Positions 32,996-63,074 of a stretch of DNA of 64,000 nt are shown here, in pieces. A program made the position numbers and the translations under genes. Source of the stretch: a virus; IMG/VR virus record IMGVR_UViG_3300020448_000002, positions 62,270 to 126,269 of that record; one strand, 5' to 3'. The notes beneath the pieces are model-generated. The model saw only the letters and a list, made by a program, of their open reading frames with translations, was not told the origin of the DNA and ran no database searches. The number at the start of each line of letters is the position of its first letter. Position 1 is the stretch's first letter.

Positions 32996-35900
32996 ATGGC
33001 AAATAGATTACAATTAAGAAGGGGTGGTGCACAGGAATGGGCAAACTCAAACCCTACTCTTGCTCAAGGTGAATTGGGTATTGAGTTAGATACTGGTCGA
33101 TTTAAGATTGGTGATGGAGTATCAGCATGGAATACTTTGCGATACGAAAGACCCGTTGAATCTATATCTAATACTGCAAACACTCTTGTACAAAGGGATG
33201 CCGACGGTAACTTTGCTGCAGGTGTTATAACTGCAACTCTAATTGGTAACGCTTCTACTGCTGCTAGACTTTCTTCAACTCGACAAATAACTTTATCTGA
33301 TGACCTGAGTGCCACAGGAACATTTGATGGATCACAAAACTTAAACCTTGCTGCAGAACTTTCTTTAGTTGCAACTCTTCCACATTACGATGGAACAGCT
33401 TCTTCATCTGGAACTTATAACAAAGTAACTGTAGACGCAAAAGGTAGAATTACCGCAGCGATAGACTATACTACAAGTAATAATGGAACGCTTGCTGATT
33501 ACGGTCTAGACGGGACTACAGAGGGTGCTTCTGCTCAACCTTATGATTTAGACCTAGTTGCTATTGCAGGTCTAACAACCACTGGTATGATCGCTAGAAC
33601 TTCTGGTGGTGCTATGGCAACCAGAACGATTACTGGTACTGCAGGAAAAATACAAATTAATAATGGTGCAGGTGTTAATGGTAATCCTACTATTAATCTT
33701 ATAACAACTACTGTAACTCCAGGTGATTATAATACAGAATCTTTAACATCTGTAAGTGCTGTAGGTAGTAATAGTGAACCATTTGGAACTGAAACTGTAA
33801 ACGCAGTTAAGTTCTCTGTTAATGAAGATGGAAGAATAACATCATCTACTAATGTTCCTATTGCAACTGCTACTGAAGGTAGTAAGTATGGTGCATTCAA
33901 TGGTGCTACTAATTATGTAAGAGATAATATAATTGAAACAGGAAGTAAGGTATATCAAGCGATTCAAGATATTAGTTCTGGAGGAATTGCACCAACTCAT
34001 ACAGATACATCTGATACTAACGGTTGGAGATATCTTGCTGCAGCTGCAGTAGAACAAAAAGGATTAGCATCATTTGCTCAAGAAGATTTTGACGTAGATT
34101 CAAATGGTCACGTTACTATTGCTGCAGTAGGAGTTGATAATAGTCAACTACAGAATAATAGAATTGGATTTGCTGATGGTAATACATTAGAGAATTTTGA
34201 ACTAGATCAAGAATTAACTGCAACAACTGGTTATAGAGGATTTAACTATCTTAATTATATTAAGGTAAACAATACTTCTGGTAGTTTATTATTTGGTGCA
34301 AATAATACAGGAGATAGTGGAAATGGTGAAGTTGATATTAATGTAAAAACTGTATTCAGTGATCCTGATTTTATACTTGATGGTGCAACTACACAACAGA
34401 TTGATAAGACTGGAGATGGTGATTTCAACATAGAACTCACACAAAACACTGCAGTAGATAGAAACCTAACTGTAGCTTCTACTAACGCAGGTTCTGGAAC
34501 TAGCACATTAACATTATCTGCAGAAGATGTAGTAGATATTGATGCCACTGCTGCAACTGGAAAGGTACATATAGAAACTATGAGATTCCAAGCAGACCAT
34601 ATTGGTGCTGTAGGAAATATATTAATTGACCCTAACGATGATAGAGACGTTAGTGGTCTAGTAACTATTAGAGGAAACTTACAAGTAGATGGAACGACTA
34701 CAACAGTTAATTCAACAGTCACAACGTTGGATGATCCCATTATTACTCTTGGTGGCGATACTGCTCCAGCTAGTGACGACGGTAAAGATCGTGGAGTTGA
34801 GTTCAGATACTACGACACTCAAGCAAGAGTTGGATTCTTTGGTTACGATGATAGCTACACAGACCTTGGAGGACACAGTGGAGGATTCAGATTCCTCTAC
34901 GATGCCACAAATACCTCGGAGGTATTCGCAGGAACAGATGCAGGGATTATATCGGGTAATCTTAAACTTACAACCAATACAAACTCAACATCTAACACAA
35001 CTGGAGATCTGGTAGTTGCAGGTGGTGTAGGTATAGGACAAGATGTTAATATTGGTGGAACAGTTGATATTGATACTAACTTAAGAACTCGTGGAACTAC
35101 TAGATTTGATGATGAGGTAGTTATTCAAGGTGCTTCTAAGGACTTCATAATGAAGAACGGAAGTGGAACTGCAAAAATTACTGCAGGATCTACAACTGGT
35201 AATATTACTATGGAAGGCATCCTTGCTGTTACAGGCAATGTAGATGTAAACACTGACAAGTTTAATATAACAGCATCCTCTGGTAATACTGCTATTGCAG
35301 GTACTTTAGTAGTAAGTGATGCTACTACTATAAAGGCAGATAATAAATTCTTTAAGATTCAAACTGCTGCGGCTGCAGATAAGTTTACAGTTGATACAGA
35401 TAACGGTAACACAGTTATATCAGGTGAATTAAATGTAAACTCAGCTGTCGATCTTGATACAACATTAAACGTAGATGGTGGTGCTACATTCCAAGATAAT
35501 GTAACACTTAACGCAGACAATAAGATGTTTAAGATCCAGACAAATGGATCTGTTGATAAGTTTACAGTAGATAGTGATAATGGTAATACAGTTATTGCAG
35601 GTCAACTAAATGTAAATTCAGCTGTTGATTTAGATAATACTTTAAATGTTGATAACGCTGCAACCTTCCAACATAATGTAACTATCAATGCTGATAATAA
35701 GATGTTCAAGATACAGAACAACTCAGCACAGGATAAGTTTACAGTTGATACAGATAATGGAAATACAATTATACAAGGAACAGTTGATATAGTCGGAGTT
35801 ACAACTCTTACTGACAACTTTACAGTTAATGGATCTCAGACAACTATTGGTAATGCTAGTAGCGATGTTTTGACTGTTAATGCAGACGCAACATTTACAG

Positions 35901-38900
35901 ATGATCTCACAGTAAATGCAACCGTTGACTTTGATTCAACTCTAAATGTTGATGGTCAAGCAACCTTCCAAGACAATATCATCTTGAACGCTGACAATAA
36001 GATGTTCAAGATACAGAATAATAGTTCTGTAGATAAATTTACAGTTGATTCTGATAATGGTAATACAGAAACACAAGGAACATTAACAGTACAAGGTCAA
36101 ACTAATATTATTGATTCACTTGTAATCAATGCTTCTAATGAGAACTTCTTAATTCAGAATGGTTCTGGTGTTAATAAGTTTACAGTTGATACCGACAATG
36201 GTAATACTAATATTACTGGAACAATAACTGTTGGTAGCACATCACAAATTAATTCTACTCTTGGTGTTACTGGAATAACAAGTCTAACAAATGCTAGTGA
36301 TCAAACTATTACTGGATCATTTGGTCTAGATGGTGGTGTAAGAGTTACTGGTGGTGTTGGAATTACTAAGAGACTTGCTGTAGGATCTGATGCAAGAGTA
36401 TATGGTAATACTACATTATCTGGAACTGTAGATATTGATAACAATACTGATGTATCTGGTAAGTTTAATATTAGCAATACTCAGGATGCCACAAGTTTTG
36501 CAGATAATTCTGTAGCATTTACTAATGATGGTGGTGCAAGGATTACTAAAAATACTTACATTGGTGGTGATCTTGTTGTTTATGACAACACTAACACAAG
36601 AGCTGCATTTACTGTTACTAATTTAACAGGAGATGGCGAGTTCCACAATGATCTTACAGTTGGAGGTAACTTAATAGTCAATGGAGCAACAACTACTGTT
36701 AACAGCACGGTCACAACTCTCGATGACCCTGTTATTACTTTGGGTGGTGACACAGCACCAGTCTCTAACGATGCTAAGGATAGGGGTGTTGAATTCCGTT
36801 ACTACGACGGCTCTGCTAAAGTTGGGTACTTCGGATTAGATAGATCATCTTTAGAATTTGCATTCTTAACAGACGCTACTAATAATTCAGAAATATTTAC
36901 AGGAACTGACGGTGCATTAAGAGTTGGTTCTATTCATGTTACAGGTGCAGGACAATCTGTTGACATTGATTCAAATGCAAACATAGATGGAACTTTAACT
37001 GTAGATGGTCAAATTACATCTCAGGTAACATCAGGACCTGCTCTTGTTATTCCAACAACTGATAAGATTAATAATCTAAACGCAGACTTACTAGATGGTA
37101 TGACAACTGCGACTGCTGCAACAGCATCTACAGTTGTTAATCGTGACTCATCTGGAGACTTTGCTGCTAATATTATTACTGTCGCAGCTGGAACTGGAGC
37201 TGGTGCAGGTATTCAAGGTAACGCACTTACTGCTGACGAATGGAAGACTGCTAGAACATTAACTGTTGACGGTGTTGTAAATGGAACTATAAGCATTAAT
37301 GGTGGTTCAGATATTACACTTACAACAACATTTGATGATCCTGATATAACTGGATTATCAGGAATGACTGGCACAGGTTATGTTGTAAGAACTGCTGCTA
37401 ATACTTTCGCACAAAGAACTTTACTAGTTACAGGAAACTCAGGTATAACACTTACCAACGCTGATGGTGTCTCAGGTGACACAACTATTAACGTTGCTTC
37501 TACACCTAACAATGCATCTGACAACTTAGTTTTACGTGATGGTAACGGTGACTTTGCTGCAGGAACTATAACTGCAAATCTAGGTGGTAACTTAACTAAC
37601 ACAAACAGTACTGCAAAGAATTTAACTCCTGCTGCTGATAGCACATACAATTTAGGATCAAATGCAGTTAGATGGGCTTATACCTATTCGGATAACTTTA
37701 CTGGTGATTCAGCAACTATTACTCAAGTAACTGGTGATCTTGGTGGTAATTTAACTAATACAACTAGCACCGCAAAGAATTTTGTTCCTGCTGCTGATTC
37801 TACTTGGAACTTAGGATCAAATACTGTCAGATGGGCTTATACTTATTCAGATGCCTTCGTTGGTGATTCAGCAACTATTACTCAAGTAACTGGTAATCTA
37901 GGTGGTAACTTAACTAACTCAACCAGTACAGCGAAGAACTTAACTCCTGCTGCAGATTCTACTTGGAATTTAGGATCTAATACTGTCAGATGGGCTTACA
38001 CATATTCTGACAATTTCACTGGTGACTCAGCAACTATTACTCAGATAACTGGTAACCTTGGTGGTAACTTAACTAATAACAACTCAACAACAAAAAATGT
38101 ATTACCTTCTGCTGATTCCACTTGGAACTTAGGATCAAATACACAGAGATATGCATACACATACTCAGATAACTTTACTGGTGACTCAGCAACTATTACT
38201 CAAGTAACTGGTGATCTTGGTGGTAACTTAACTAATAACAATACCTTTGCAAGAACAATTCTTCCTGCTGCTAGTTCTACTTGGAATTTAGGATCTAGTA
38301 CAGCTAAGTGGGCATATGTATATGTCGATACTATTAATGTTACCAACTCTATTACTGCTAATGTAACAGGTGCTCTTACAGGTAACGCTGATACTGCAAC
38401 TGCCTTAGAGACTGCAAGAACTATCGGTGGCACAACCTTTGACGGAACTGTTGATATTGTTCCTGCTACTGCAACACAGGCAACAAACCTTAACAACCAT
38501 GATACTGATAATCTATCAGAAGGAACATCTAATCAATACTATACAGAAGCAAGAGTTCAAGCAAAACTTGACAATGCTTATGATCAACTAAAAGCAATGT
38601 TATCTAATCTTGCTACTACAACAACATTAAAATTAAATCTATCTGGAGATCCTACACCTGGTGCTGTTGTATCACTTGGATCTATTACAGCAAGTGGTCT
38701 AGGAGGATTCACAGGAGCAACAGGAGTTGCAACTAATGGTGGAACTGGAGTTGGATTAACAGTTGATACGACTGTAACAAATGGTGCTATAACTGGAATC
38801 ACATTAAATGCTGCAGGTACTGGATACTTAATAAGCGATACTTTAACACTCACAAATGCTAATGCAGGTGGTGTTGCTACATTGAACCTTGGATCATTAG

Positions 38901-40033
38901 TAACTGGAACTGGTGGATTCAGTAATGCAACAGCTGTTGCAACAACTGGTGGATCAGGAACAGGATTAACTCTTGATACTACAGTAGATGCATCTGGAGC
39001 AATTACAAACCTTGTAGTTAATGCTGCAGGAACTGGTTATGCAAATGGTGAAACAATTACACTTACAAATCCTAATGCAGGTGGAGTAGCTACAACAGAT
39101 ACTCTTGTTGTTGGAACTGGTTACATTGATGGAACTGCAGTTGCAACAACTGGTGGTGGGGGAAGCGGTTTAACAGTAGATGTTACTACATCAGGTGGTC
39201 AAGTAACTGGGGTTGCAGTAAATGCTGCAGGATCAGGATATGCTGTTGATGACACTATTACTATTACTAACCCTAACGGTGGTGGAGTACAAACACTAGG
39301 AACTATTGCTACTGGAGGAACAGGATATTCTAACGCAACTGCGGTTGCAGTAACAGGTGGTGGAGGATCTGGATTGACAGTTGACATCACTACATCAGCA
39401 GGAGTAGTAACTGGGGTTACAATCAATAATGATGGAGTTGGTTATGCTGCATCTGATGTTGTTACTATTGCAAATGCTAATGGAACAGGTGCTAAGACTC
39501 TTGGTTCTATTACAACTGCAGGAACTGGATATTCATCTGGAACTGGAGTTGCAACAACTTCATCTGGATCAGGAACTGGATTGACAGTTGATACTACAGT
39601 TGATGGAGATGGAGCGATAACTGCTGTTACAATAAACAATGATGGATCTGGTTATGCAGCATCTGAAGTTATAACTATTGCAGGAGGTAGTGGAACTGCT
39701 CAATTTACTGTGTCAGCAATACATGGTAATGGAGCAACAATTCCTATATCTGCAGTGTTCAGTAACAACGCAACGTTTGATGTTGCAAGCATATTTGTTG
39801 ATGCAACAATTAACCTTGCTACTGTATTCACAGATGCAACCTTCTCACTAAGTGACATTACTGCAATGGAAATCGGTGGAACTGTAATAGGAGCAACTTC
39901 TGGAACTACTGGAACTATCACTGCTATGGATAGCAGTTCTGTTACTGTTGATAATGTAGACGGATTCTTCAAATCTGGAGAAACTGTTGGTGCTAATGAT
40001 GTTACTAACTTGACTATAAGTTCATTCGGATAA
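32996..40033 (+). CDS. Long tail/neck fibre-like protein with Mtd_N/hyaluronidase-type N-terminus and several repeat blocks
   Basis: LQLRRGGAQEWANSNPTLAQGELGIELDTGRFKIGDG N-terminal motif; YNKVTVDAKGRIT, LNADLLDG and ARTIGG fibre motifs; Gly/Thr-rich; directly upstream of gp13. Confidence 0.75.
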   Translation: MANRLQLRRGGAQEWANSNPTLAQGELGIELDTGRFKIGDGVSAWNTLRYERPVESISNTANTLVQRDADGNFAAGVITATLIGNASTAARLSSTRQITLSDDLSATGTFDGSQNLNLAAELSLVATLPHYDGTASSSGTYNKVTVDAKGRITAAIDYTTSNNGTLADYGLDGTTEGASAQPYDLDLVAIAGLTTTGMIARTSGGAMATRTITGTAGKIQINNGAGVNGNPTINLITTTVTPGDYNTESLTSVSAVGSNSEPFGTETVNAVKFSVNEDGRITSSTNVPIATATEGSKYGAFNGATNYVRDNIIETGSKVYQAIQDISSGGIAPTHTDTSDTNGWRYLAAAAVEQKGLASFAQEDFDVDSNGHVTIAAVGVDNSQLQNNRIGFADGNTLENFELDQELTATTGYRGFNYLNYIKVNNTSGSLLFGANNTGDSGNGEVDINVKTVFSDPDFILDGATTQQIDKTGDGDFNIELTQNTAVDRNLTVASTNAGSGTSTLTLSAEDVVDIDATAATGKVHIETMRFQADHIGAVGNILIDPNDDRDVSGLVTIRGNLQVDGTTTTVNSTVTTLDDPIITLGGDTAPASDDGKDRGVEFRYYDTQARVGFFGYDDSYTDLGGHSGGFRFLYDATNTSEVFAGTDAGIISGNLKLTTNTNSTSNTTGDLVVAGGVGIGQDVNIGGTVDIDTNLRTRGTTRFDDEVVIQGASKDFIMKNGSGTAKITAGSTTGNITMEGILAVTGNVDVNTDKFNITASSGNTAIAGTLVVSDATTIKADNKFFKIQTAAAADKFTVDTDNGNTVISGELNVNSAVDLDTTLNVDGGATFQDNVTLNADNKMFKIQTNGSVDKFTVDSDNGNTVIAGQLNVNSAVDLDNTLNVDNAATFQHNVTINADNKMFKIQNNSAQDKFTVDTDNGNTIIQGTVDIVGVTTLTDNFTVNGSQTTIGNASSDVLTVNADATFTDDLTVNATVDFDSTLNVDGQATFQDNIILNADNKMFKIQNNSSVDKFTVDSDNGNTETQGTLTVQGQTNIIDSLVINASNENFLIQNGSGVNKFTVDTDNGNTNITGTITVGSTSQINSTLGVTGITSLTNASDQTITGSFGLDGGVRVTGGVGITKRLAVGSDARVYGNTTLSGTVDIDNNTDVSGKFNISNTQDATSFADNSVAFTNDGGARITKNTYIGGDLVVYDNTNTRAAFTVTNLTGDGEFHNDLTVGGNLIVNGATTTVNSTVTTLDDPVITLGGDTAPVSNDAKDRGVEFRYYDGSAKVGYFGLDRSSLEFAFLTDATNNSEIFTGTDGALRVGSIHVTGAGQSVDIDSNANIDGTLTVDGQITSQVTSGPALVIPTTDKINNLNADLLDGMTTATAATASTVVNRDSSGDFAANIITVAAGTGAGAGIQGNALTADEWKTARTLTVDGVVNGTISINGGSDITLTTTFDDPDITGLSGMTGTGYVVRTAANTFAQRTLLVTGNSGITLTNADGVSGDTTINVASTPNNASDNLVLRDGNGDFAAGTITANLGGNLTNTNSTAKNLTPAADSTYNLGSNAVRWAYTYSDNFTGDSATITQVTGDLGGNLTNTTSTAKNFVPAADSTWNLGSNTVRWAYTYSDAFVGDSATITQVTGNLGGNLTNSTSTAKNLTPAADSTWNLGSNTVRWAYTYSDNFTGDSATITQITGNLGGNLTNNNSTTKNVLPSADSTWNLGSNTQRYAYTYSDNFTGDSATITQVTGDLGGNLTNNNTFARTILPAASSTWNLGSSTAKWAYVYVDTINVTNSITANVTGALTGNADTATALETARTIGGTTFDGTVDIVPATATQATNLNNHDTDNLSEGTSNQYYTEARVQAKLDNAYDQLKAMLSNLATTTTLKLNLSGDPTPGAVVSLGSITASGLGGFTGATGVATNGGTGVGLTVDTTVTNGAITGITLNAAGTGYLISDTLTLTNANAGGVATLNLGSLVTGTGGFSNATAVATTGGSGTGLTLDTTVDASGAITNLVVNAAGTGYANGETITLTNPNAGGVATTDTLVVGTGYIDGTAVATTGGGGSGLTVDVTTSGGQVTGVAVNAAGSGYAVDDTITITNPNGGGVQTLGTIATGGTGYSNATAVAVTGGGGSGLTVDITTSAGVVTGVTINNDGVGYAASDVVTIANANGTGAKTLGSITTAGTGYSSGTGVATTSSGSGTGLTVDTTVDGDGAITAVTINNDGSGYAASEVITIAGGSGTAQFTVSAIHGNGATIPISAVFSNNATFDVASIFVDATINLATVFTDATFSLSDITAMEIGGTVIGATSGTTGTITAMDSSSVTVDNVDGFFKSGETVGANDVTNLTISSFG
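35336..36210 (+). repeat. Degenerate 177-bp (59 aa) repeats ADNKMFKIQ...DKFTVDTDNGNT
   Basis: Units begin at 35336, 35513 and 35690 (177-bp spacing), then at 35990 and ~36131. Confidence 0.8.
37583..38330 (+). repeat. 159-bp (53 aa) tandem repeat, ~4.7 copies
   Basis: GGNLTN...PAADSTWNLGSNTVRWAYTYSDNFTGDSATITQVTG units start at 37583, 37742, 37901, 38060 and 38219, with visibly high nucleotide identity. Confidence 0.9.
38659..39860 (+). repeat. Five Gly/Thr-rich ~65 aa modules followed by five stacked closing strands
   Basis: 5x (G-x-G-Y/F...GGSGTGLTVD...G-x-GY...TIT), then AQFTVSAI / ATIPISAV / ATFDVASI / ATINLATV / ATFSLSDI. Confidence 0.75.
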
Positions 40034-40847: not shown

Positions 40848-41774
40848 ATGGCAATTTCTAATACTCCTGCTCAAGATTACGTTCAATCAGACTACAGTAA
40901 TAGTGGTCGTTTGAGAGCGAATGGTTCTGAACAAGAACAAAAATTTATTGAAAACTTAGTAGTAGAGAGTATTGAAATTTATGGACAAGACATCTATTAT
41001 GTTCCAAGGACTATCGTCAATCGTGACACGGTTTTCGGAGAAGATTCAGATGGTAAGTTCGAGTCTGCAAAACCAATCAGAGCATATATCAATAATGTCG
41101 AAGGATGGGAAGGACAAGGTGAGTTACTTACAAAATTTGGAATACGTATCGAAGATAAAACAACGTTTATATTCTCCCGTGAAAAGTTTAAAGAAAAAAT
41201 TGACGACTCTACAGTCCTTAATGTCGAAGGAAGACCTAACGAAGGGGATCTAATATGGTTTCCAATAACAAAACATTTATTTGAAATACAATTTGTAGAA
41301 GTAGAAAGACCTTTCTATCAGTTAGGTAGAAATTTTGTATGGGAATGTCAGTGTGAACTCTTCGAGTACAGTGACGAATCAATCGATACTGGTCTTGCAG
41401 AACTAGATGCTATCGAGACTGCATTTGCAAATGCTATTACAGTTGGTCTTGCTACTGGTGGTAGTGGTGACTTTACTGTAGGTGAGACTGTAACAGGTGG
41501 TTCTTCTAATGTTACTGCTGAAGTTAAGTCTTGGGATTCTGCTACTAGAACTCTTATTGTTATAAATCGTTCTGGAACATTCACAGTTCCCGAAACACTT
41601 ACAGGAGGCACATCTAGTGCATCTTGGACAACCGCATCTTATAACACCATAGATAATAAAAACATCGAGTACGATCAAAACAATGAGTTTGAAACTGCTG
41701 ATGATGATATTATTGACTTCTCCGAAACTAATCCATTTGGATCAGTCGGATCCACTAATGACTTGACAATCTAA
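40848..41774 (+). CDS. gp14: Neck protein gp14
   Basis: LVVESIEIYGQDIYYVPR, RPNEGDLIWFP, PFYQLG, CELFEYSDESIDTG, DFSETNPFG. Confidence 0.92.
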   Translation: MAISNTPAQDYVQSDYSNSGRLRANGSEQEQKFIENLVVESIEIYGQDIYYVPRTIVNRDTVFGEDSDGKFESAKPIRAYINNVEGWEGQGELLTKFGIRIEDKTTFIFSREKFKEKIDDSTVLNVEGRPNEGDLIWFPITKHLFEIQFVEVERPFYQLGRNFVWECQCELFEYSDESIDTGLAELDAIETAFANAITVGLATGGSGDFTVGETVTGGSSNVTAEVKSWDSATRTLIVINRSGTFTVPETLTGGTSSASWTTASYNTIDNKNIEYDQNNEFETADDDIIDFSETNPFGSVGSTNDLTI

Positions 41775-61356: not shown

Positions 61357-63074
61357 TTACTTTTGAAACTTTAAAGTGGAAAAATTTTCTTTCCACTGGT
61401 GACCAATGGATTGAAATAAATCTAAATACCACTACATCAACTTTGATAGTTGGTGCAAATGGAGCAGGTAAATCCACTATGTTGGATGCACTTACCTTTG
61501 CTTTATTCAATAAACCTTTTCGTAAAATAAGTAAAGGTCAACTAGTTAATAGTATTAATGAAAAAGGAACTAAAGTCGAACTGACATTTATTATAGGGAG
61601 GGATGAGTATCGTGTATTCAGAGGGATTAAACCAACTACGTTCGAGGTTTATAGGAACAATAAGCCACTTGATCAGGATGCTGCAACCAAAGACATGCAG
61701 AAATATCTCGAACAATCAATTCTCAAACTCAACTATAAGTCATTTACACAAGTCGTCATCTTGGGTTCATCCACATTTGTCCCCTTCATGCAACTCAAAG
61801 CTCCTCACAGGAGAGAAGTTATCGAAGATTTATTGGACATCAATATCTTCTCACAAATGAATCAACTGCTGAAAGACAGAGTTCGATCAGCATCACAGAA
61901 AGATAAAGACTGCACTCACCTAGTCACACTAGCAGAAGAGAAAGTATCATCACAAGAAAAATTAATCGATTCTCTTAAAGAAGTAAATTCAGAATTAAAA
62001 GAAGAACAATTAAAAAAATTAAATAAAAAGCAAATACAGATATTAGATTTATGTAAAGATAAAGAAGCAGATGAACAAGAATTATCTCATTCTGAAAAAC
62101 AGTTAAAAGGATTTGATGCTCATAAAAAATCATTACAAGAATTAAGATCTACAGAGTCTGATCTTAAATCAGAACTAAGAAGAGTTACTAAAGAAACAAA
62201 GTTTTTTAAGAACAATGATTCATGTCCTACATGTACACAAGTTATAAATCCAAACTTTAAAAAGGATAAGATAGATGTCTTAACAAGGGATGGTGTATCT
62301 CTAACAAAGAAAACTAATGAATTTAAAGAAGAGATTACTACTCTTGTAAAAACTATTGAAGAACTTGAATCTATATCTGAAGAGGTATATCAACTTCGTA
62401 GTAGAATCTCATCATACGATAGAGATATAATTCGTCTGGAAAAAGATACACTGACTATTGAAAAAGAATTAGATAAGCTAGGACGTGATACTCCTAATAT
62501 TGATAAAGAGAATCATATTCTAAATGCTCTAACAATGGATCTAGAAAATACTAGAGACAAGTGTGGTAAGGTGTCTGCTGAACTAGATGAATACAAAGTT
62601 GTAGCTAATTTATTAAGAGACTCAGGAATCAAAGCAAAAATTATTAAAAAATATATTCCTGTTTTTAATACATTGATCAATAAATATCTTCATAACATGG
62701 ACACCTTCTTTAACTTTACTCTTGATGAAGAATTTAATGAAGTTATTAAGAGTAGATTTAGAGATGAGTTTACTTATTCATCCTTCTCTGAAGGAGAGAA
62801 ACAGAAGATTGATTTAGCACTTCTCTTTACATGGAGAGAGATTGCTCGTATGAAAAATTCAGCAGCGACTAATCTTCTTATACTTGATGAAGTATTTGAT
62901 AGTTCTCTTGATGCATCTGCTGTGAATGATTTGATTAGTATACTTTTAAAGTTAGGTCAAGATACTAATCTATTTGTCATATCACACAAAGGTGAAATCC
63001 TCATAGATAAATTTAAGAGGACACTAGAGTTTGAAAAAGTAAACGATTTCTCAAAGATGTCTGAAGATACCTAA
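61353..63074 (+). CDS. gp46: Recombination endonuclease ATPase subunit gp46 (Rad50/SbcC-like)
   Basis: WKNFLSTG, Walker A GANGAGKS, zinc hook CPTC, signature FSEGE, Walker B LILDE, VISH. Confidence 0.96.
   Translation: MITFETLKWKNFLSTGDQWIEINLNTTTSTLIVGANGAGKSTMLDALTFALFNKPFRKISKGQLVNSINEKGTKVELTFIIGRDEYRVFRGIKPTTFEVYRNNKPLDQDAATKDMQKYLEQSILKLNYKSFTQVVILGSSTFVPFMQLKAPHRREVIEDLLDINIFSQMNQLLKDRVRSASQKDKDCTHLVTLAEEKVSSQEKLIDSLKEVNSELKEEQLKKLNKKQIQILDLCKDKEADEQELSHSEKQLKGFDAHKKSLQELRSTESDLKSELRRVTKETKFFKNNDSCPTCTQVINPNFKKDKIDVLTRDGVSLTKKTNEFKEEITTLVKTIEELESISEEVYQLRSRISSYDRDIIRLEKDTLTIEKELDKLGRDTPNIDKENHILNALTMDLENTRDKCGKVSAELDEYKVVANLLRDSGIKAKIIKKYIPVFNTLINKYLHNMDTFFNFTLDEEFNEVIKSRFRDEFTYSSFSEGEKQKIDLALLFTWREIARMKNSAATNLLILDEVFDSSLDASAVNDLISILLKLGQDTNLFVISHKGEILIDKFKRTLEFEKVNDFSKMSEDT

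Follow-up and report, generated by a model that had tools for sequence, protein, structure and literature searches.

A fibre tail of a T4-like cyanophage as a probable recursively nested array of one beta domain with count-matched closing strands

How can a protein chain fold that lays down five similar units in a row and then, after the last of them, five short strands in a row? This question is raised by the C-terminal tail of a fibre or structural protein gene in a 64,000-nucleotide stretch of viral DNA (IMG/VR virus record IMGVR_UViG_3300020448_000002, positions 62,270 to 126,269), referred to below as the window. The gene encodes a 2345-aa open reading frame (ORF) of the T4-like cyanophage type. 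It is likely that, over the last ~460 residues of this protein, a single kind of six-stranded beta domain of ~80 aa is nested recursively inside itself, and that the chain thereby builds an out-and-back stalk.

In this model, a complete domain would consist of a lead strand, a GxGY turn, three strands, a second GxGY turn, a fourth core strand and a closing strand. Each domain would take up the next one after its fourth core strand and ahead of its closing strand, and this would be repeated five times. Since the insertion precedes the closing strand, the chain would run out through five closer-less units to the tip, formed by unit 5, and then return through five strands of 11–12 residues. Each returning strand would supply the missing last strand of one unit, so that closer k would complete unit 6-k. 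The C-terminal module of 55 aa would be brought back to the base of the stalk, beside the helix and the LSGDPTPG segment that precede the first unit. A likely role for such a structure is that of a rigid, length-adjustable stalk located distally on a host-recognition fibre and carrying the most variable domain at the tip.

The anatomy of the tail can be read directly from the translated ORF. Its parts were placed by a regular-expression (regex) parser that uses generic patterns only, which gave five Gly/Thr-rich units of ~69 aa, five strands of 11–12 aa (closers) and the 55-aa module, in this order (Table 1). The initial annotation had placed the array at 38620–40030; these coordinates and the strings quoted with them are correct, and all of the parts it described are present in the ORF. 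It further proposed that the stack interrupts a module which would start with TTLKLNLSGD, in the pre-strand, and continue with the C-terminal module. The units measure 63–71 aa each, and a linker of 4 aa separates unit 5 from closer 1. Within a unit, the order is a lead strand, a GxG[YF] turn, a strand, a Gly-rich turn, two strands, a second GxGY turn and a TITI-type strand. The lead strands, which stand before the first GxGY, resemble the closers, and there are 2N strands of this type in total, where N is the number of units. Tandem Repeats Finder reports no repeat over the five units, the DNA of which has diverged too far. The innermost unit is the least conserved, with a mean identity of 0.55 versus 0.68 for unit 1, and it occurs in two alternative forms.

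Table 1. Parts of the fibre gene and of its C-terminal tail, in positions of the window (pLDDT, predicted local distance difference test; E and H, strands and helix with residue numbers in the model named; HMM, hidden Markov model)
Feature	Position	Strand	Remarks
Fibre/structural protein gene	32996..40033	+	2345-aa ORF, phrog_697, T4-like cyanophage type
Predicted alpha-helix (YYTEARV... segment) before the stack	38534..38617	+	AlphaFold2 516-aa model, DSSP H18-45 of P0001
Conserved pre-strand ending LSGDPTPG	38618..38662	+	columns invariant in 22 sequences
Unit 1 (outermost), lead strand and core, without own closer	38663..38851	+	
Unit 2, lead strand and core, without own closer	38852..39064	+	
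Unit 3, lead strand and core, without own closer	39065..39265	+	part of trans-complementation test
Unit 4, lead strand and core, without own closer	39266..39469	+	E8-11, E24-31, E35-44, E47-58, E65-68 (166-aa model)
Unit 5 (innermost)	39470..39679	+	E76-84, E92-99, E104-112, E118-128, E135-138 (166-aa model)
Closer 1, last strand of unit 5	39692..39724	+	E145-152 (166-aa model); His invariant in 51 sequences
Closer 2, putative last strand of unit 4	39725..39760	+	E157-164 (166-aa model); 10-residue blocks covering it average pLDDT 91–94
Closer 3, putative last strand of unit 3	39761..39796	+	parse and trans test
Closer 4, putative last strand of unit 2	39797..39829	+	parse, counts, register tests
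Closer 5, putative last strand of unit 1	39830..39862	+	most conserved closer, mean pairwise identity 0.80
55-aa C-terminal module (MEIGG...SSFG)	39866..40030	+	HMM 3e-32 to itself; phrog_358 weak

What the short strands are becomes apparent from relatives that carry the domain only once. The innermost unit with its flanking strands (86 aa) was used as a query against 1.84 billion representative proteins, which returned 660 clusters at E ≤ 1e-3 and 62 at E ≤ 1e-10. Among the 150 matches listed, 25 were single-stretch matches, and 23 of these 25 extend to query residue 81 or beyond, which lies inside the closer (residues 76–83). In all seven of the single-copy examples inspected, a lead-type strand precedes the first GxGY, and a closer-like strand (...ITI-GG..-ATFTV...) stands immediately after the second GxGY hairpin. 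Since these relatives carry the closer directly after the core, it is the normal last strand of the domain. In the fibre, a GxGY turn comes next after the strand that follows each outer core; that strand is therefore the first strand of the next unit, and units 1–4 consequently stop before their own final strand. The claim of the initial annotation that the units end before their final strand thus holds for these four, whereas unit 5 is directly followed by closer 1, so that the number of displaced strands is four and not five. This displacement is what a nested insertion would produce: the single-copy domains keep the closer after the core, while in the fibre only unit 5 does so, and four more closers then follow. 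Proteins that are not fibres also carry the domain as a single copy, among them small proteins and gp14-like neck proteins.

An equal number of separated closing elements and open domains, which is expected of nested insertion and which the initial annotation proposed to check in orthologues, was observed with one exception. The orthologue set comprised 119 proteins, after one of 120 (P0090) had been removed as not being an orthologue because it has no anchor and a different C-terminus. Counting was done using regex with a spacing rule. Unit counting based on HMMs was dropped in favour of this procedure, as the likeness between the two halves of a unit leads it to over-count. The number of units was equal to the number of closers in 118 of the 119 orthologues (82 of 83 unique tails), over a range of N = 3–8: three units were found in 43 proteins, four in 24, five in 27, six in 18, seven in 1 and eight in 5. 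An independent set of 80 IMG/VR viral contigs, in which all 80 loci could be parsed, yielded 60 unique tails, of which 46 were new; the counts matched in every one of the 60, with N between 4 and 8. The smallest case is the fragment P0145, with one unit and one closer. The spacing from unit to unit in the 119 orthologues is always 67–74 aa, which is too short for any unit except the last to contain a closer of its own. The tail lengths fall into discrete classes that are ~82 aa apart.

The number N has changed repeatedly. At least 16 changes were counted on a FastTree phylogeny of the outer shell (helix, unit 1, last closer and module; 77 rows; mean of 43.6 with shuffled labels) and 30 on a tree of the N-terminal 420 aa (94 rows), both of these trees being short or possibly confused by recombination. 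Even so, the match between units and closers was kept through many separate changes of N.

Structure prediction gave a confident model for the part of the array that a nest would make self-contained. The two innermost levels (39266–39763, 166 aa) were modelled with AlphaFold2 using a 51-sequence alignment obtained from the loci. The mean pLDDT was 93.8 and the predicted template modelling (pTM) score 0.78, with the five models ranging between 86.5 and 93.8 in pLDDT. The model contains 12 strands, six per level, and both closer 1 and closer 2 are among them. Without a real nest, such a segment would not be a self-contained object. Both domains are matched in superposition by a BFVD model of a P-SSM3 fragment, with a template modelling (TM) score of 0.85 and a root-mean-square deviation (rmsd) of 3.1 over 177 columns, and several viral proteins match one domain over 78–94 columns with an rmsd of 1.2–1.9.

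Another assay in silico was based on complementation in trans. The three innermost levels were split at the tip, and the three closer-less units (205 aa) and closers 1–3 (39 aa) were folded together as separate chains by ESMFold2. The median ipSAE (interaction prediction score from aligned errors) was 0.48 (0.48, 0.43 and 0.49 in the three runs) versus 0.00 for the best of 3 controls. The runs agreed in at least 95% of the contacts, and the pLDDT of the partner was at least 78. The units' own pLDDT was 86–90 with the closers versus 61–64 with unrelated partners. In the calibration of ipSAE, 58 of 80 solved complexes passed the mark, as did 2 of 110 mismatched pairs, and values of 0.60 or less among those passing came from only 7 of the same 80 solved complexes and from both of the passing mismatches; these counts hold only roughly for the present test, which used a custom alignment. 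The test lends weak support to the binding of closers to units.

Taken together, the single-copy relatives, the equal counts from N = 3 to N = 8 (and N = 1 in P0145) and the two-level AlphaFold2 model support the 1[2[3[4[5]]]] nesting put forward in the initial annotation, in which the returning chain completes each domain, and the trans test adds weakly to them.

The register in which closers and units would pair was approached through residue types and covariation. When the strands are paired as nesting prescribes, an Asp before the second GxGY coincides with a His-ending closer in 145 pairs, an Asp with a Phe-ending closer in 12 and an Ala with a His-ending closer in 4. The number of Asp-type units equals the number of His-type closers in 65 of 82 tails, among which are N = 5 tails with two distinct architectures. 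The pooled mutual information of unit columns with closer columns was highest in the nested register (89.4), compared with 76.9 when this register was shifted by -1, 63.5 when it was shifted by +1, 63.1 for parallel pairing and 22.4 ± 0.7 for random pairing within a protein. Positive diagonals were seen throughout the block matrices after average product correction (APC).

Several points weigh against a nested stalk completed within one chain. The AlphaFold2 model of the whole 516-aa C-terminus, built from a 22-row alignment, is unusable (pLDDT 40.8, pTM 0.23), and its best-scoring part is the predicted helix before the stack (pLDDT 67–69). In the two-level model, DSSP shows only that closer 2 is hydrogen-bonded to something, and its pairing with unit 4 is putative. 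A pass in the trans test at such ipSAE values would more often be wrong than right, unless the guess is already likely. The signals from mutual information and from the mirroring of residue types could come from positional homology at both ends of the array and from shared ancestry; the register tests are thus confounded and may serve as supporting evidence only. The clade of the window is itself an exception to the mirroring, as unit 4 has the Asp and its putative closer ends in Phe. One orthologue (P0075), the sole unmatched one, has four units and three closers. Finally, the fibre is probably a trimer, and the closers could complement the units of a neighbouring chain.

The closers of P0075 are identical to those of three-unit relatives such as P0081, and the protein may be a duplication intermediate, a recombinant or the result of an assembly collapse. 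A single tandem duplication at the tip would give N+1 units and N closers, which is exactly the state of P0075. Since a duplication breaks the match, the match would have to be restored or selected, either through insertion of a whole domain or through two events combined with selection. This bears on the proposal of the initial annotation that recursive insertion is a general growth mechanism of the surface proteins of this phage, which holds only in part. In its favour, the same domain family also appears to be nested at another split point (see below); the mechanism by which a nest grows would, however, have to be more than one tandem duplication.

The exchange of strands between chains is the alternative that survives best, although it is an unlikely one. 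It retains the out-and-back topology and has the closers of one chain complete the units of another, which would lock the three chains of a trimeric fibre together. It predicts the same equality of counts as nesting does. Phage fibres that begin with an Mtd_N domain, as this one does, are usually trimers, and the binding of the closers in trans in the ESMFold2 runs, weak as that support is, would also fit. In contrast, a single two-level chain folds alone with the scores given above, and the domain is also found singly outside fibres, in the small proteins and gp14-like neck proteins mentioned above. These observations argue for completion within the chain.

A still less probable reading, to which we give little weight, is that of beads on a string accompanied by a separate strand array. 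Each unit would be completed by the lead-type strand that follows it, and the N-1 extra strands would form a sheet or solenoid of their own that tracks the length of the stalk. The strand after each core does resemble a closer, and the pairing of closers with units in the nest is itself putative. An internal two-fold symmetry of the unit is also no more than suggested by the weak match that hhalign found between the two half-domains (probability 41%, E = 2.7e-4), which would sit well with this reading. However, it gives no reason for the counts to be equal in all but one of the orthologues and in all of the unique contig tails across at least 16 changes of N. The strand after an outer core leads into a GxGY turn, as the first strand of a single-copy domain does and the last does not. 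True tandem arrays of the same domain (P0132) carry a closer of their own in every unit, and the closer-less units lose confidence in the prediction when the closers are replaced.

That the tail is a low-complexity region without a defined fold, its pattern a by-product of repeat slippage, is suggested by the Gly/Thr/Ala-rich composition and by the poor model of the whole tail, and it is very improbable in view of the lack of a DNA repeat over the units in Tandem Repeats Finder, the many columns that are invariant across orthologues of 45–70% identity and the pLDDT of the two-level model.

The same domain was found in other arrangements among 148 representatives taken from the domain search. 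Nine of them have a tandem order (ABAB or ABABAB), in which each copy has its own closer. These arrays, such as P0132, P0133 and P0137, are made of the same ~80-aa GxGY domain in AB AB AB order and, unlike the fibre tail, are beads on a string. A further 13 of the 148 have n first halves followed by n second halves (A^nB^n order): 5+5 once, 3+3 five times and 2+2 seven times, and P0127 was also read as 5+5 by eye. The A^nB^n proteins include P0124, P0127, P0134–P0136, P0165 and P0210. A Por_Secre_tail sorting domain is present in P0124, P0127 and P0134, and a PA domain in the first two of these as well, which identifies the three as secreted bacterial proteins of the type IX secretion system (T9SS). 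Their arrays belong to the same family as the fibre tail and likewise have as many first halves as second halves; they differ in being split in the middle of the domain and not before its last strand, and in belonging to cellular proteins. On the evidence of this order, the A^nB^n arrays look like nesting at the midpoint of the domain, a second split point in the family. In one further protein (P0125), one copy of the domain seems to hold another, complete copy between its second and third core strands, which would be a third insertion point.

How does such a structure compare with what is known? Repeat proteins are normally tandem. Out-and-back fibre tips and nested insertions of unlike domains have both been described before. 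The distal tip of T4 gp37 (the needle domain, PDB 2XGF), which serves in host recognition, takes the chain out to the tip and back to the base from which it started; gp37 forms an interwoven trimer. The fibre tail would resemble it in the out-and-back course of the chain, in having both ends of the tip region at the base and in the host-recognition function. It differs in having discrete nested domains and at most one His per closer, where gp37 is interwoven and held together by His-x-His motifs that bind iron (iron sites, PMC6957217). A likeness of the gp37 type was not seen in the PDB either, where the tail gave only four chance matches by sequence, all at E ≥ 0.67 and thus none at E < 0.6, and no fold match at E ≤ 0.001. 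In RrgA, a pilus adhesin of pneumococci, one domain interrupts a loop of a second, and the second in turn sits within a third. Insertions of the RrgA type involve unlike domains at two or three levels and in a fixed number, whereas in the fibre one homologous domain would be nested 3 to 8 deep, in variable number and with a separate array of closing strands. The orthologues in phrog_697 (for example ORF108 of S-TIM4, the P-RSM3 fiber and the P-SSM7 protein) are the same gene in the same position upstream of gp13, gp14 and gp15, with the same tail design and N = 3–8; a nested tail is not described in their records or in the accessible part of PMC6224464. The literature searched, the coverage of which is partial, contained no report of nesting of a homologous domain to a depth of 3–8 with a count-matched array of closers.

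We lean towards regarding the GxGY domain as a new way to build extended surface structures. The domain would be nested 3 to 8 deep under a count-matched, A^nB^n-like rule enforced by folding; this would have arisen at two split points, the one in cyanophage fibres lying ahead of the last strand and the one in bacterial T9SS proteins in the middle of the domain; and it would yield a rigid stalk of tunable length with both ends at the base and a swappable host-recognition tip. If one homologous domain is indeed nested to a depth of as many as eight, it offers a clear case of a long-range, count-matched dependency in protein sequence. It also poses an evolutionary puzzle, in that one duplication breaks the match and yet N has changed many times with one unmatched protein among those examined. 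The design suggests how marine cyanophages may tune the length of their host-recognition fibres and exchange the tip domain. On the practical side, standard domain callers will mis-parse nested arrays.

The unit is a widespread domain without a curated family. No Pfam family and no NCBIfam model matched the 516-aa tail, and no common Pfam family was present in any of the 30 nearest clusters of the ESM Atlas. The single-copy relatives gave only a sub-threshold match to Gp18_dom_I (PF22639; 18.6 bits, cut-off 27). The best fold lead in the PDB was the inserted domain of the tail sheath of Klebsiella phage KP1 (9f4a chain SA), with a probability of 0.66, a TM score of 0.34 and 26% identity over 98 columns. 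The unit may thus be distantly related to sheath decoration domains.

The gene as a whole belongs to phrog_697, the profile of which matches the entire 2345-aa protein (E = 0, 2695.8 bits); the C-terminal 516 aa alone match it at 7.6e-119. An Mtd_N domain (PF18454) was found at residues 6–43 (48.2 bits, cut-off 26.3). The gene lies directly upstream of three ORFs that match the head-tail adaptor Ad2, the head closure protein Hc2 and the tail sheath stabilizer, the equivalents of T4 gp13, gp14 and gp15. A tblastn search with the last 516 residues returned 223 phage records, all of them from Synechococcus or Prochlorococcus phages or cyanophages, in which the orthologues are labelled 'structural protein', 'fiber' or 'YadA domain-containing structural protein'. 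The last of these GenBank labels is not reproduced by Pfam on the fibre protein: no YadA head, stalk or anchor match was obtained at E ≤ 1 on the 2345 aa, only Mtd_N and a weak DUF6149.

The orthologue in S-TIM4, ORF108, has already been tied to host adaptation. According to PMC6224464, it is particle-associated and was mutated in all of the populations that had been experimentally evolved for host adaptation. In one evolved population, a 120-bp stretch of ORF108 carried 15 synonymous changes, and the part of it that holds the ten most upstream changes is identical to a downstream region of the genome (same source). This identity may indicate copying between repeated stretches.

Apart from the tail, the fibre ORF also holds plain repeats, at 37569–38303 (period of 159 nt, 4.6 copies, 79% matches) and at 35378–35773 (period of 177 nt, 2.2 copies). 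Both are ordinary head-to-tail repeats and are not nested. When the HMM of the C-terminal module was run against the ORFs of the window, the only match was a weak one (independent E-value of 0.5) in the gp14-like protein (40848–41771, + strand). There, at residues ~195–255, a short strand ending in GGSGD is directly followed by the weakly matching segment, which could be a contiguous version of the module (pre-strand and C-terminal module) that the initial annotation took the stack to interrupt, the match being too weak to count as evidence. Elsewhere in the window, a 510-aa ORF (P0270; 23687–25216, + strand) has GxGY turns and two weak matches to the profile of the first half of the domain (residues 226–253 and 266–294); here a neighbouring structural protein may harbour a diverged relative of the domain.

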